DNA from: Patescibacteria group bacterium
GTDB taxonomy: Bacteria > Patescibacteriota > Minisyncoccia > Minisyncoccales > PWPS01
Direction: 5' to 3'
NCBI GenBank assembly: GCA_051745165.1
Contig: JBNJDU010000004.1
Location: 1-39,490, forward strand
Length of the DNA: 39,490 bases
Within the stretch, counting starts at the first letter, position 1, and each line of letters starts with the position of its first letter. Below the pieces are notes generated by a model. The model saw nothing but the letters and a program-made list of their open reading frames with translations, had not been told where the DNA came from and searched no databases. Made by a program: the position numbers and the translations under genes. Shown here piece by piece: positions 17,023-21,263 of the stretch.

Positions 17023-19035
17023 ATGATCTCTAAAGTTGAAAAAAGAAATGGAGAAAAGGTAGACTTCGATAAATCAAAAATCGAAACCGCAGTTTACAAA
17101 GCTTTGACGTCTTCCGAGGAAGGAGGGGAGGCGGAAGCGAAAGAGGTATCTGACCGAGTCTTCGACTTACTTTTAAGAAGATTCAGTAGAGACGAAGTTC
17201 CTCAGGTGGAGCAAATCCAAGATATCGTTGAAGAAGTTCTCATCATGGAAGAGTTTCATGATGCAGCTAAAAATTACATACTGTACAGAGAAAAGCGGCG
17301 TGAAATTAGAGAAATGAAGGGTGAGCTGGATGAATCCTCTAATTTAGTGGAAGATTATATTGATGAAATGGACTGGGAGGTTAAAGAAAACGCCAACATG
17401 ACATATTCCCTTCAGGGTCTTAATCAGTATGTTACTTCTCACGTTTCTAAAGAGTATTGGCTTAACAAAATATATCCAGAAAATATAAGAAAAGCGGCTA
17501 AAAACGAAGATATTCATATTCATGATTTAAATCTACTTGCCACTTATTGCTGTGGATGGGATCTGCAAGATTTATTGATGAAAGGTTTCGGAGGTGTTCC
17601 TTCAAAAATTGAATCCGCACCGCCAAAGCACTTAAGACCTGCCTTGGGTCAAATTGTGAATTTCTTCTTTACTCTGCAAGGAGAATCAGCAGGAGCTCAA
17701 GCGATGAGTAATTTTGATACTTTTCTAGCTCCTTTTATTGCTTATGATAATTTAAGCTACAAACAGGTAAAGCAAGCGATGCAAGAATTCTTATTTAATT
17801 GCATGGTGCCGACTAGAGTAGGATTTCAAACTCCGTTTATTAATGTATCTTTAGATATTAAAGTTCCGAAACACTTAGAAGATCAAGCAGTTATAATAGG
17901 AGGTGAACCGCAAGACGCAACTTACGGAGAGTTCCAAAAAGAGATGGACATGTTTAACAGAGCCTTTTATGAAGTTATTATGGAAGGTGATTCTAAAGGA
18001 CGTGTCTTTACTTTCCCAATTCCAACAATTTCAATAACTGATGACTTTGATTGGGATAACGAAACTCTTGATCCGATGTGGGAGGCAACTACTAAGTATG
18101 GAATTAATTACTTTTCCAATTACATGAATTCAGATATGGATCCGGAGGATTTCCGTTCAATGTGCTGCAGGTTAAGACTAGATAATAAAGAACTTATTAA
18201 AAGAGGAGGAGGGCTTTTTGGAAGTCAGCCTTTAACTGGATCAATCGGTGTAGTTACTGTTAATATGCCTCGAATCGGTTACCTCTCCAAAACCAGAGAA
18301 GAGTTTTACAACCGCTTAGAAAAGATGATGGATTTGGCTAAAGATTCACTAGAAATCAAAAGGAAGGTAATTAATGACTTTATGGAAAAGGGTCTTTATC
18401 CTTATAGCAAACATTACTTGCAGGGAGTAAAGCAGATGAGAGGAACTTATTATGGAAACCACTTCTCAACTATTGGCCTTATCGGAATGAATGAGGCTTG
18501 TCTTAACTTTTTAGATAAAGGAATTGGATCTAAAGAAGGAAAGGAATTTGCCGAAGATGTCTTAGACTTTATGAATGATAAACTTCTTGAGTATCAAGAA
18601 GAAACTGATAATTTATATAATTTAGAAGCAACTCCAGGTGAGGGCACTGCCTACAAACAGGCAAAAAGAGATAAAGAAAAGTTCCCGGATATAATTACTG
18701 CCGGTACTGAGGAAGTCCCTTATTACACTAATTCAGTTCATCTCCCAGTTAACTACAGTGATGACCCAATAGAGATTATTGATCACCAAGATAGTCTTCA
18801 AACAAAGTTCACTGGTGGTACAGTAATTCACTTATTCCTAGGTGAAAAGATTTCCAGCCCTGATGCTGCTAAAAAACTAATTAAAAATGTATTCCAGAAT
18901 TATGAACTGCCTTATGTTTCTTTAACTCCTAGCTTTTCAATCTGCCCTAATTGTGGATACATTCACGGAGAAAAATATACTTGTCCAAATTGTAAAATCA
19001 AAAAACCAAAAAAGGTCATAAAAAACTTAAACTAA
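17023..19035 (+). CDS. nrdD: Anaerobic ribonucleoside-triphosphate reductase (class III) large body, lacking the glycyl-radical segment
   Basis: N-terminal ATP-cone (KRNGEKVDFDKSKIETAVYKAL), catalytic Cys region (FRSMCCRLRLD), and a C-terminal zinc ribbon (CPNCGY...CPNC). It stops before any RxxGY motif. Confidence 0.92.
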   Translation: MISKVEKRNGEKVDFDKSKIETAVYKALTSSEEGGEAEAKEVSDRVFDLLLRRFSRDEVPQVEQIQDIVEEVLIMEEFHDAAKNYILYREKRREIREMKGELDESSNLVEDYIDEMDWEVKENANMTYSLQGLNQYVTSHVSKEYWLNKIYPENIRKAAKNEDIHIHDLNLLATYCCGWDLQDLLMKGFGGVPSKIESAPPKHLRPALGQIVNFFFTLQGESAGAQAMSNFDTFLAPFIAYDNLSYKQVKQAMQEFLFNCMVPTRVGFQTPFINVSLDIKVPKHLEDQAVIIGGEPQDATYGEFQKEMDMFNRAFYEVIMEGDSKGRVFTFPIPTISITDDFDWDNETLDPMWEATTKYGINYFSNYMNSDMDPEDFRSMCCRLRLDNKELIKRGGGLFGSQPLTGSIGVVTVNMPRIGYLSKTREEFYNRLEKMMDLAKDSLEIKRKVINDFMEKGLYPYSKHYLQGVKQMRGTYYGNHFSTIGLIGMNEACLNFLDKGIGSKEGKEFAEDVLDFMNDKLLEYQEETDNLYNLEATPGEGTAYKQAKRDKEKFPDIITAGTEEVPYYTNSVHLPVNYSDDPIEIIDHQDSLQTKFTGGTVIHLFLGEKISSPDAAKKLIKNVFQNYELPYVSLTPSFSICPNCGYIHGEKYTCPNCKIKKPKKVIKNLN

Positions 19036-19040
19036 TTCTT

Positions 19041-19352
19041 ATGGGTAACACTAAAAAGAAGATATTTAAAAAAGAAAAGGAGGCGCTAAAATACTCCACA
19101 TGTTACGATTGTGGAAAAGAACTCGACATTGAAGAAGGGGAAATCAAAAACGGGGCGCTTCTAATCTACGAAGATGGAGAAGAAAAAGCTTCTATCTTAA
19201 AGTGCGATGAGTGTTATGAAAAAGATCCAGCTCTCAAAAACTATAAAAAATGTGAAGTTTACTCTCGAATAGTAGGTTATCTGCGCCCGGTCCAAGACTG
19301 GAATAAAGGTAAAAGTCAAGAGTTTAAAGAAAGAAAGACTTTTGTCCGATGA
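19041..19352 (+). CDS. Separate 103-aa ORF carrying an extra Cys4 ribbon and the NrdD glycyl-radical motif
   Basis: The C-terminus EVYSRIVGYLRPVQDWNKGKSQEFKERKTF matches the conserved NrdD glycyl-radical tail. Upstream are CYDCG...CDEC. It starts 5 nt after the nrdD stop, in the -1 frame. Confidence 0.8.
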   Translation: MGNTKKKIFKKEKEALKYSTCYDCGKELDIEEGEIKNGALLIYEDGEEKASILKCDECYEKDPALKNYKKCEVYSRIVGYLRPVQDWNKGKSQEFKERKTFVR

Positions 19353-20041
19353 AAATCGGGGGACTGCAGAAGTTAACTTTAATAGATTACCCAGGGAAAC
19401 CAGCGTGTACTATCTTTTTAGCTGGTTGCAACCTTAATTGTCCTTGGTGTCATAGCCCGGATTTAGTAGTGGAAGAAAAAATAAAAAAAGCTCCGGAAAT
19501 TAAAAAACAGGAGTTCTTTGACTTTTTAAAGAAAAGAGAAAATGTTTTGGAGGGGGTTGTAATTTGCGGAGGAGAACCGACTGTTAATTCAGACTTACCT
19601 GAACTTATAGAAGAAATTGTTGATCGGGGTTATGCTGTAAAATTAGATACAAATGGAACTAATCCGCAAATGATAGAAAGGTTAGTTAAGGAAGGGTTAG
19701 TTGATTATATCGCAATGGATATAAAGGCTCCTTTTGAAAGGTATAAAGAGGCTACGGGAGTAAGTGTTGATCCTAAACTGTTAAGGAAGAGCATTTCTAT
19801 AATTCAAAGATTGGATGATTATGAATTTAGAACTACTTTTATTCCCGGATTATTAACTAAAGAGGATTTACCTCTAATGCTTAAGGAAATTGAGGGGGCT
19901 GAAAATTATTTCTTACAAAATTTTAGAGGAAAAAGAACTGTTAATGACGACTATCAAGGAAAAGATAGCTTTACTAAAGAGGAGATGAAAGAGCTTAGAA
20001 AAATAGCTGAAGAATACGTAAAAAATTGTGAAATAAGATGA
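19349..20041 (+). CDS. nrdG: Anaerobic RNR activating protein (radical SAM)
   Basis: CNLNCPWC (CX3CX2C) cluster motif and GGEPT. ATGA overlaps at both ends. Confidence 0.9.
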   Translation: MKIGGLQKLTLIDYPGKPACTIFLAGCNLNCPWCHSPDLVVEEKIKKAPEIKKQEFFDFLKKRENVLEGVVICGGEPTVNSDLPELIEEIVDRGYAVKLDTNGTNPQMIERLVKEGLVDYIAMDIKAPFERYKEATGVSVDPKLLRKSISIIQRLDDYEFRTTFIPGLLTKEDLPLMLKEIEGAENYFLQNFRGKRTVNDDYQGKDSFTKEEMKELRKIAEEYVKNCEIR

Positions 20042-20535
20042 ATATACCAGTCATACTATCAACAGCTAGAAAGGGAAGGCAATCTGAGAAGGTTGCCGCT
20101 TTTGTTTATGAAAAGACTAGCTTTGATAGTGAGATTATTGATGTAAGGGACTGGATGAAACCGGCTACCAAGAGATATCCTGAAAATCAAAAAAAGTTGC
20201 AAGAAAAGTTCCAAAAGGCGGATGGTTTTATAATTGTTTCCCCTGAATATAACAGTGGTTACCCGGGAGAATTAAAAATACTTTTAGATACTTACCTAGA
20301 TGAGTATAAAGATAAACCAGTCGGGATTATTGGTGTTTCTGCTGGTAGCTTCGGTGGAATACGGATGATTGAGAAGTTAAGGCCAGTTTTGGTTAACTTG
20401 GGAATGGTTCCAATTAGAAAAACGGTTACTTTCAAAAACGTAAATGATGTTTTTGATGATGAAGGTAATTTACGAGATGATAGTTATAATAAACGGGTAG
20501 AAGATTTTATAAAAGCATTGAAAAGGAGAGTGTAA
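20038..20535 (+). CDS. NAD(P)H-dependent FMN reductase / flavodoxin-like fold protein
   Basis: 165 aa with ADGFIIVSPEYNSGYPGELKILLD, typical of the FMN_red family. Translationally coupled to nrdG. Confidence 0.8.
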   Translation: MNIPVILSTARKGRQSEKVAAFVYEKTSFDSEIIDVRDWMKPATKRYPENQKKLQEKFQKADGFIIVSPEYNSGYPGELKILLDTYLDEYKDKPVGIIGVSAGSFGGIRMIEKLRPVLVNLGMVPIRKTVTFKNVNDVFDDEGNLRDDSYNKRVEDFIKALKRRV

Positions 20536-20561
20536 TATTTAATAAATGTTTGGCCTCATAT

Positions 20562-21263
20562 ATGAAGAAGTTATTAAAAGAAAATAATGAATTGATAAAT
20601 CATAATTATTTTCGCTTTCTCCTGCAAATAATAACTGTTCAAGAGGAAATAAGAAAGTTAGGACGACTTGAAACTAATTTATATAGATGGAAGAAAGTTT
20701 TAAAAAAAATGGATTTGGTTGTTTTTGAAAAAGACAACTTTCTCTATTTTGCTAAAGAAAAAGAAATAATTAAAAAAGTAAAAAGCATATTAAATGGAAA
20801 GCAATTTCTAAAGCAAAATAAAGAATTAGGTTATCTTTTTGGTTATCCTAATTGCTGCATAAACCATTTTATTAAAAATATTGATTTAATGATTGAAGAG
20901 AAAAATTTTACATTGAAGAGAAAGACAATAAGTAAGCACTCCCAAAATAACTTTCCTTGGCAGATGAATAATTTTACTAAATTTTCACTTACACTTCATC
21001 ATAATTGTTCTTATAATTGCCAAAAATCACTAGATTTAGCAAAAAAATATAGCCACTTAATGAAGAGCTTTAATCAAGAAATTTTTGAAAAAGCCAAAAG
21101 TGAAAGCATTGGTGTTGTAATAATTAGTAAAGAAAATAAAAGACACGGGTTTCTTAAAAAAGCTAAATTAAATAACCATAAAGTAGTAGTTGAAAACGAT
21201 AACAGCAAAAAAGAACTCTTAAATCTTATAGATGCTGACTTAAAAGCATATCAATTTAACTAG
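20562..21263 (+). CDS. Hypothetical Cys-motif protein
   Basis: The ORF is visibly more A/T-rich than its neighbours and contains GYLFGYPNCCINHF ... HHNCSYNCQ. I start it at the in-frame ATG at 20562 rather than the TTG at 20550. No family assigned. Confidence 0.5.
   Translation: MKKLLKENNELINHNYFRFLLQIITVQEEIRKLGRLETNLYRWKKVLKKMDLVVFEKDNFLYFAKEKEIIKKVKSILNGKQFLKQNKELGYLFGYPNCCINHFIKNIDLMIEEKNFTLKRKTISKHSQNNFPWQMNNFTKFSLTLHHNCSYNCQKSLDLAKKYSHLMKSFNQEIFEKAKSESIGVVIISKENKRHGFLKKAKLNNHKVVVENDNSKKELLNLIDADLKAYQFN

Follow-up and report, generated by a model that had tools for sequence, protein, structure and literature searches.

A Class III Ribonucleotide Reductase Probably Composed of Two Separately Translated Polypeptides in a Patescibacteria Bacterium

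Organization of the nrd Locus

We analysed a stretch of DNA of 39,490 nucleotides (nt) from a Patescibacteria group bacterium (assembly GCA_051745165.1, contig JBNJDU010000004.1, positions 1 to 39,490 of the forward strand), hereafter the window, which is also the part of the host genome that the analysis covers. It contains nrdD, the gene for the catalytic subunit of class III ribonucleotide reductase (RNR), at positions 17023..19035 of the forward strand (ORF1, 670 amino acids, aa). This open reading frame (ORF) ends with CPNCGYIHGEKYTCPNCKIKKPKKVIKNLN and a stop codon directly past its zinc ribbon, without a glycyl-radical domain (GRD). The glycyl-radical motif EVYSRIVGYLRP, which includes Gly79, is carried by a second, 103-aa ORF (ORF2) at positions 19041..19352, in the -1 frame relative to nrdD, where a CYDC..CDEC ribbon is followed by CEVYSRIVGYLRPVQDWNKGKSQEFKERKTF. 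Direct reading shows that the frame of ORF2 is open from position 18996, giving a 40-nt overlap with ORF1, and that within this overlap the heptamer A_AAA_AAG (positions 19008-19014) lies in the zero frame as X_XXY_YYZ, with the codons cca aaa aag. An earlier note on this DNA, made from the letters alone, had described the nrdD without a radical segment, the missing tail on a 103-aa ORF with a second Cys4 ribbon, and the phase of the heptamer within the overlap; all its coordinates and sequences proved correct on re-reading.

ORF1 consists of an ATP-cone (PF03477), the NRDD barrel (PF13597, 603.7 bits) and an MCCR finger loop, and it scores above the curated cutoffs of NF006126 (1013 bits, cutoff 548) and TIGR02487 (528 bits, cutoff 326). 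The MCCR motif at ORF1 residue 380 belongs to the double-cysteine, thioredoxin-type class (PMC9669993). A zinc ribbon of the form CPNC-x10-CPNC is kept on the large subunit (residues 641-657, positions 18943..18993 by direct reading) and is followed by a basic C-terminal tail, KIKKPKKVIKNLN, and a TAA stop (positions 18994..19035), which occupy the place where a full-length NrdD starts its glycyl-radical loop. The C-terminal RVxGY loop that marks a NrdD is therefore missing from this chain, since ORF1 stops 13 residues past the ribbon. The two ORFs share the known profiles between them: along PF13597 (Pfam NRDD, 562 positions), ORF1 covers 1-532 and residues 17-101 of ORF2 cover 507-562, and along NF006126 (684 positions) the two ORFs cover 2-649 and 643-681, respectively.

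The stop codon of nrdD and the ATG of ORF2 are separated by the 5-nt spacer TTCTT (positions 19036..19040), which is a likely site of translational coupling. ORF2 itself (positions 19041..19352, forward strand), assigned from its homologue family, the selection acting on it and RNA contigs as a putative small radical-bearing subunit, has a basic N-terminal segment, a long zinc ribbon and a GRD. This second ribbon, C21-x2-C24 ... C55-x2-C58 (positions 19101..19214), has an acidic beta-hairpin insert of about 30 residues according to conservation and an AlphaFold2 (AF2) model. The glycyl-radical loop and C-terminal tail, with the sequence CEVYSRIVG79YLRPVQDWNKGKSQEFKERKTF, lie at positions 19251..19349, the codon of Gly79 being 19275-19277. 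The next gene on the same strand is nrdG, encoding the radical-SAM activase (positions 19349..20041; TIGR02495 NrdG2, 199.5 bits, cutoff 131), whose start overlaps the stop of ORF2 in an ATGA.

Probable Translation of ORF2 as a Separate Gene

ORF2 is under purifying selection along its whole length. Between the window and the related loci L002-L005, the nonsynonymous divergence pN is 0.07-0.17 and the synonymous divergence pS is 0.76-0.94, and the first 20 codons behave likewise. Metatranscriptome RNA contigs cover nrdD as well as ORF2-nrdG.

A Shine-Dalgarno (SD)-like motif occurs within 18 nt of the start in 3 of the 35 window ORFs, the starts being preceded by A/T-rich sequence, and the host seems to initiate translation largely without SD pairing; the absence of such a motif before ORF2 is thus normal. 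Along nrdD, ORF2, nrdG and a downstream gene with an FMN (flavin mononucleotide)-reductase fold, stops and starts lie 5 nt apart or overlap as ATGA, and this spacing suggests translational coupling.

Junctions between the Two Genes in Related Genomes

A search with ORF2 led to 80 genomic loci, and 4 more were reached via the large subunit. Fifteen loci have a tail-less nrdD, namely the window, 10 of the 80 fetched loci and the 4 reached via the large subunit. In all of them the nrdD without a radical domain is followed by a 92-123-aa ORF matching PF13597 and by nrdG, usually behind ftsZ, so that the body of the enzyme and its C-terminal module lie on adjacent, co-oriented genes throughout the clade. 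The small ORF starts at its own ATG in each of the 15 loci. The junction sequence, on the other hand, is not conserved, and its length varies between an overlap of 4 nt and a spacer of 38 nt, with spacers of 5, 8, 8, 4, 11, 5, 2, 12, 28, 9, 22, 4, 26, -4 and 38 nt. The small ORF is in the -1 frame relative to nrdD in nine loci, in the +1 frame in four, and in frame behind the stop in two; in L011, a single TAA stands between two ORFs of the same frame.

We also examined the best 120 database relatives of the C-terminal half of ORF1, taken as 90%-identity clusters from NCBI, ENA, JGI and Logan. Fifty-nine of these clusters (665-680 aa, longer with inteins) terminate in the same ribbon and basic tail, KIKxPKKxIKKIN, the four ribbon cysteines being present in nearly all of them, and the other 61 are ordinary full-length NrdDs with the ending C-x2-H..C-x2-C-x3-QPCEVYSR[IV]VGY. 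No fused protein of about 780 aa was found among the 59 tail-less clusters. An exhaustive profile search over 1.84 billion representatives gave 4049 matches, of which the best 150 are all 42-159 aa long; in that set, the module of second ribbon plus radical loop is therefore seen only as a small protein.

It should be noted that the second ligand of the ribbon switches along with the loss of the radical domain, the tail-less proteins having C-x2-C..C-x2-C and the listed full-length Patescibacteria NrdDs (P0180-P0241) having C-x2-H..C-x2-C.

Inteins interrupt nrdD in close relatives (L011:483-3482, also L006, L014 and L016) and in many database NrdDs of 877-1101 aa. The intein of L011 lies exactly within the finger-loop motif (M-C, intein, C-R-L), and the NrdD alignments of L006 and L014 are interrupted past residue 269 as well, which suggests a second insertion site. 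Joining of the two chains by a split intein was considered and rejected, since neither the ORF1 tail nor the ORF2 N-terminus contains intein blocks and the inteins of the relatives lie within the barrel.

The Small-Protein Family

The search with ORF2 returned at least 778 stand-alone homologues of about 90-120 aa with 50-97% identity, mostly from Patescibacteria metagenome bins, and the small ORFs of this family are mostly unnamed or annotated as hypothetical. In an alignment of 121 sequences, the ribbon residues D23, C24, K54, C55 and C58 are invariant and C21, G38, L41 and Y43 are conserved at 90% or more, while the loop residues V73, Y74, R76, V78, G79, Y80 and P83 are all invariant. The acidic hairpin insert of about 30 residues is shared by all members of the family and absent from the ribbon of full-length NrdDs.

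In Pfam and NCBIfam scans, ORF2 matched NrdD-type models only, and no GrcA or pyruvate formate-lyase (PFL) model. The family profile aligns its radical loop to residues 612-644 of Thermotoga maritima NrdD (4coi, 4u3e), and the structural comparison of ORF2 consists of this sequence-profile match to the T. maritima GRD. In the NrdD of Prevotella copri, the GRD has been described as a mobile unit of zinc site, glycine loop and tail (PMC11226230). Judged by its sequence, ORF2 is such a complete GRD, with its own zinc ribbon, the Gly79 loop and a C-terminal tail; at 103 aa it is a small stand-alone protein built from the GRD of a larger enzyme. It is also more than a severed end of nrdD, because a simple fission leaves one ribbon and here both chains have one.

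Many of the small proteins encoded in stress operons (see below) end in a cysteine pair (..KECC, ..KDCC, ..SCDC, ..NCC; L007, L009, L010, L018, L022, P0034, P0044, P0046, P0055, P0080, P0091). The pair is reminiscent of the C-terminal cysteines that serve for redox shuttling in class I and class II RNRs, and ORF2 of the window is without it.

Genomic Contexts of the Family

In two loci, L025 and L026, a full-length nrdD with its own radical loop directly precedes the small ORF and nrdG. At each of these loci both radical loops are identical across 32-34 residues, including a lineage-specific serine.

At 18 loci the small ORF stands alone, with neither nrdD nor nrdG within 3.5 kb. In 15 of them, a Fur-family gene overlaps or abuts it upstream and/or a stress gene lies downstream (in one case 2.6 kb away), the stress genes being those for rubrerythrin, desulfoferrodoxin (superoxide reductase, SOR), Fe/Mn or Ni superoxide dismutase (SOD), peroxiredoxin (AhpC), hemerythrin and cupin proteins. 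None of the other 66 loci has an oxidative-stress gene within 3.5 kb. Four of the stand-alone genomes have a full-length ftsZ-nrdD-nrdG on another contig (L007/L030, L010/L048, L015/L059, L019/L072), and the radical loops of these four nrdDs are nearly identical to that of the small protein. By analogy with GrcA/YfiD and T4 Y06I (see below), the stress-operon and beside-nrdD contexts are those in which one would expect a spare part that replaces what oxygen damages in an enzyme.

About 40 viral contigs (L081-L121) also carry stand-alone homologues, without nrdD or nrdG in the vicinity, and one of these homologues is placed between a helicase and an endolysin gene. The phage ORF at L104:2833-3273 lies between head-morphogenesis/tail-tube genes and the tape measure gene and matches no PHROG family; another example of such a ribbon-plus-glycyl-radical ORF is at L106:2932-3279.

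Evolution of the Split

In a NrdD tree built from the barrel only, without the columns of ribbon and tail, the 11 tail-less NrdDs of Patescibacteria fall into a single clade with a support of 100. Fourteen Chloroflexota NrdDs whose radical loop is on a separate ORF form a second clade, nested among full-length enzymes. Since the two split clades are distinct, the radical domain has been separated at least twice. A tree of the small proteins gave no resolved branching.

The Chloroflexota loci (L034, L037, L039, L041, L042, L051, L055, L062, L064, L069, L075, L077) have a different structure at the split. Their NrdD ends past CPVHGY..CPYEH, and the separate ORF of about 55-60 aa has PCEVYSRIVGYLRPVQNWNKGKQQEF only, without a ribbon; these small ORFs usually have a clear GGAGG-type Shine-Dalgarno site, and their frames vary.

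For the clade of the window, the ribbon insert shared across the family is the reason for inferring a path that likely led from a spare part to a spare part encoded beside nrdD and then to loss of the enzyme's own GRD, which would have made the small protein obligatory.

Alternative Explanations

The features of the junction admit two explanations, raised in their main form in the earlier note, in which ORF1 and ORF2 would give or once gave one chain. In one of them, a programmed -1 frameshift at A_AAA_AAG fuses the two ORFs into a functional long NrdD, or provides a needed second isoform as in dnaX; the trans-frame product would then show the junction peptide KIKKPKKGHKKLK, the end of ORF1 being VIKNLN. 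The heptamer is the one that drives -1 frameshifting in dnaX and is intrinsically slippery in E. coli, it is correctly phased within the 40-nt overlap with the -1 frame open from 18996, and the -1 relation recurs in 9 of the 15 loci, but the +1 and in-frame arrangements of the remaining loci do not fit such a mechanism. Comparison of the nrdD C-termini of relatives, which the earlier note had proposed, bore out the same split and the extra ribbon and not the heptamer: of the 11 junctions read, 4 contain it (those of the window, L002, L003 and L014) and 7 do not (L001, L004, L005, L006, L011, L012 and L016). Moreover, L003, the nearest relative of the window (NrdD 93% identical), has the same heptamer and the small ORF in the +1 frame, and because its spacer is 4 nt, slipping into the -1 frame cannot bring a ribosome into the small ORF. 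The zero-frame codons past the heptamer (V-I-K-N-L-N) are kept as protein, with synonymous changes, in a codon alignment of 11 loci. The earlier note had seen no obvious hairpin or SD-like stimulator, and we agree: the 96 nt downstream (19015-19110) fold with -9.8 kcal/mol, z = -0.8 against shuffles, and direct reading upstream of the heptamer reveals no SD-like element. In-frame A_AAA_AAG occurs 12 times, and any X_XXY_YYZ with Y = A or T 102 times, in the 11,695 codons of the window (34% G+C), so that the frequency of the heptamer here is no more than chance, and it encodes Pro-Lys-Lys of a Lys-rich tail. A fusion would also have both ribbons, with about 85 residues separating the first of them from the glycine loop, against about 6 in full-length relatives, and neither the 59 tail-less clusters nor the best 150 of the 4049 profile matches include a fused homologue. 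We therefore regard programmed frameshifting as very improbable and the heptamer as most likely incidental. The other explanation, a homopolymer miscount in assembly or sequencing, or else a recent inactivating mutation that made nrdD a pseudogene, could appeal to the two A6 runs within 19000-19013 and to the contigs of public runs, which break in this A-rich stretch. However, an independent RNA contig (run X3) matches 18817-19021 without change or indel and confirms both A-runs, although none of the Logan contigs, the only ones compared, spans 19022-19067. The error is refuted by the 59 independent clusters, which come from various assemblers and archives and share the same end; the identical two-ORF layout of all 15 loci with differing spacers and the strong purifying selection on both ORFs point the same way, and a restored single frame would not yield a normal NrdD because ORF2 adds a second ribbon. 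The chance that the split is such an artefact is negligible.

Two further explanations accept ORF2 as a separate protein and assign it another role. It might be a spare part or regulator for an intact NrdD encoded elsewhere in the genome, ORF1 being a regulatory or nucleotide-binding paralogue or a decaying copy, as might be thought from the relatives of ORF2 that coexist with an intact NrdD elsewhere in the four genomes described above. Against this, ORF1 has retained its ATP-cone, MCCR loop and ribbon, and among relatives with FtsZ identities of 90-94% its own identity is 85-93%; it sits at the ancestral ftsZ-nrdD-nrdG position, and the tail-less nrdD and the small ORF occur together in 15 of 15 loci; among the 80 loci listed, there is no second nrdD for the tail-less genomes. 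We consider this explanation unlikely, if the least improbable of the alternatives. ORF2 might also be a decoy or sensor, for example by titrating NrdG or by reporting oxygen through its own cleavage, and the stress-operon contexts of its relatives would fit a sensor too. The operon would then be left without a radical carrier, however, because ORF1 has no glycine-radical site, and where both proteins exist the GRDs of the small one and of the resident NrdD agree at nearly every position, as expected of a part that has to fit the same barrel; a decoy or sensor thus seems hardly credible.

Two-Subunit Model

We think it quite probable, on the strength of the comparative sequence data, that the locus encodes a class III RNR of two separately translated polypeptides, of which the small one is a GrcA-like radical subunit derived from a spare part. 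This was the remaining proposal of the earlier note, with a small ORF resembling GrcA/YfiD and a start at the ATG 5 nt past the stop; the evidence supports it, and the stand-alone relatives in oxidative-stress operons strengthen it.

What we infer beyond the structure, conservation and contexts of the genes concerns the way in which the two chains would work. ORF2, which starts at its own ATG, would probably be translated by termination-reinitiation coupling with nrdD, and NrdG would activate the free small subunit at Gly79. The loop of the small subunit would then enter the NrdD barrel beside the finger-loop cysteines, so that the radical is supplied in trans. Oxygen damage, with loss of the radical and a cut at the glycine, would cost the enzyme no more than the 12-kDa subunit, which would then be replaced. 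As a speculation, part of the contact surface between the chains may be formed by the ORF1 basic tail and the ORF2 acidic hairpin.

Several observations do not sit easily with the two-subunit model. The large subunit keeps its own ribbon, so that the assembled complex would hold two. The AF2 model of ORF2 (pLDDT 73.6), a small two-lobed structure with strands 38-45 and 48-55, is of moderate confidence, and a Foldseek search with it against the PDB gave no significant neighbour (best E = 0.6). The ORF2 copy of the window belongs to the nrd operon rather than to a stress operon, the spare-part context being borrowed from relatives. A second NrdD served by ORF2, as weighed above, would count against the model as well. 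Finally, a small incidental slippage at the heptamer may yield a minor fused by-product in this strain.

With less assurance, we lean towards a broader reading of the family, the parts of which we judge jointly. Class III RNR would have a separately encoded, exchangeable radical subunit, present in Patescibacteria as a regulated spare, as an adjacent second copy and as the sole carrier. The spare form in Patescibacteria would be regulated by peroxide or oxygen, as its Fur/PerR operons with rubrerythrin, SOR and SOD suggest. In Chloroflexota, an independent event of simple fission would have produced an enzyme of two chains, and the phage copies would presumably keep host deoxyribonucleoside triphosphate synthesis going.

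Comparison with Known Systems

One close likeness is to the PFL spare parts GrcA/YfiD of E. coli and Y06I of phage T4, which are also small stand-alone GRD proteins. They are presumed to be activated by the cognate activase and thought to insert in trans, and the occurrence of ORF2 relatives in stress operons and in phages extends the likeness. ORF2 differs in being homologous to NrdD and not to PFL, in having its own zinc ribbon, and in that its partner enzyme in the clade of the window is without a GRD, which would make the small protein obligatory and not a repair part. According to a 2026 review, spare parts are known for formate lyases only, and whether any other glycyl radical enzyme has them is still to be settled (PMC13450708; likewise PMC8683613).

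The split class II RNR of Pseudomonas aeruginosa, NrdJa/NrdJb, which Crona et al. (2015, PMC4520616) called the only such case among cellular organisms, likewise has a C-terminal module on the next gene of the operon, conserved in the clade. However, NrdJb holds redox-shuttling cysteines and not a radical, and it arose by simple fission, whereas ORF2 was apparently recruited from among paralogues that already existed as a family and have an extra ribbon. With the single-chain NrdD/NrdG systems of phage T4, T. maritima and P. copri, the locus shares the ATP-cone, the barrel, an MCCR loop of the T. maritima type, a ribbon, the RIVGY loop and the adjacent NrdG; it differs in its separate GRD chain, in the basic tail that closes the large chain and in the two ribbons that the assembled enzyme would have. 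Class I RNR is comparable by analogy only, its alpha and beta subunits placing catalysis and radical storage on different polypeptides: the ferritin-like NrdB is unrelated to the GRD, and here the radical would come by direct insertion and not by long-range transfer. The likeness to the dnaX-type -1 frameshift consists in the same heptamer in the right phase inside a frame overlap, and ends there: an SD-like or hairpin stimulator is lacking, heptamer and frame relation are not conserved, and the searches gave no fused homologue. The literature outside subscription-only papers, as far as searched, yielded no account of a class III RNR that is split or has a spare part.

Oxygen destroys glycyl radical enzymes irreversibly by cutting the chain at the radical glycine, and to our knowledge the only countermeasure is the GrcA/YfiD spare part for PFL. 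If the broader reading is correct, the locus and its relatives would be the first case of spare parts for a glycyl radical enzyme that is not PFL, and would show a class III enzyme with a class-I-like division into catalytic and radical subunits; the locus would also be a split RNR outside class II. Together, the locus and its relatives would form a natural series for an essential anaerobic RNR, from an intact enzyme with a stress-regulated spare, through an intact enzyme with an adjacent spare, to a tail-less enzyme with an obligate small subunit, and the question of spare parts beyond formate lyases would become directly testable. The model also bears on the supply of DNA precursors in minimal-genome, oxygen-exposed groundwater bacteria. 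For annotation, it is worth mentioning that a tail-less nrdD might be taken for a truncated or frameshifted gene.

Other Genes Downstream of the nrd Operon Core

The gene with an FMN-reductase fold mentioned above (positions 20038..20535, forward strand; PF03358 FMN_red, E = 8e-30) overlaps the stop of nrdG in an ATGA, and a gene of this kind lies directly downstream of nrdG on the same strand in L001-L005 as well. Its product may be a dedicated electron donor for NrdG, replacing flavodoxin. Past the nrd operon, an A/T-rich ORF of 237 aa (20550-21263) matches DUF483 (PF04467, 28 bits, cutoff 25).

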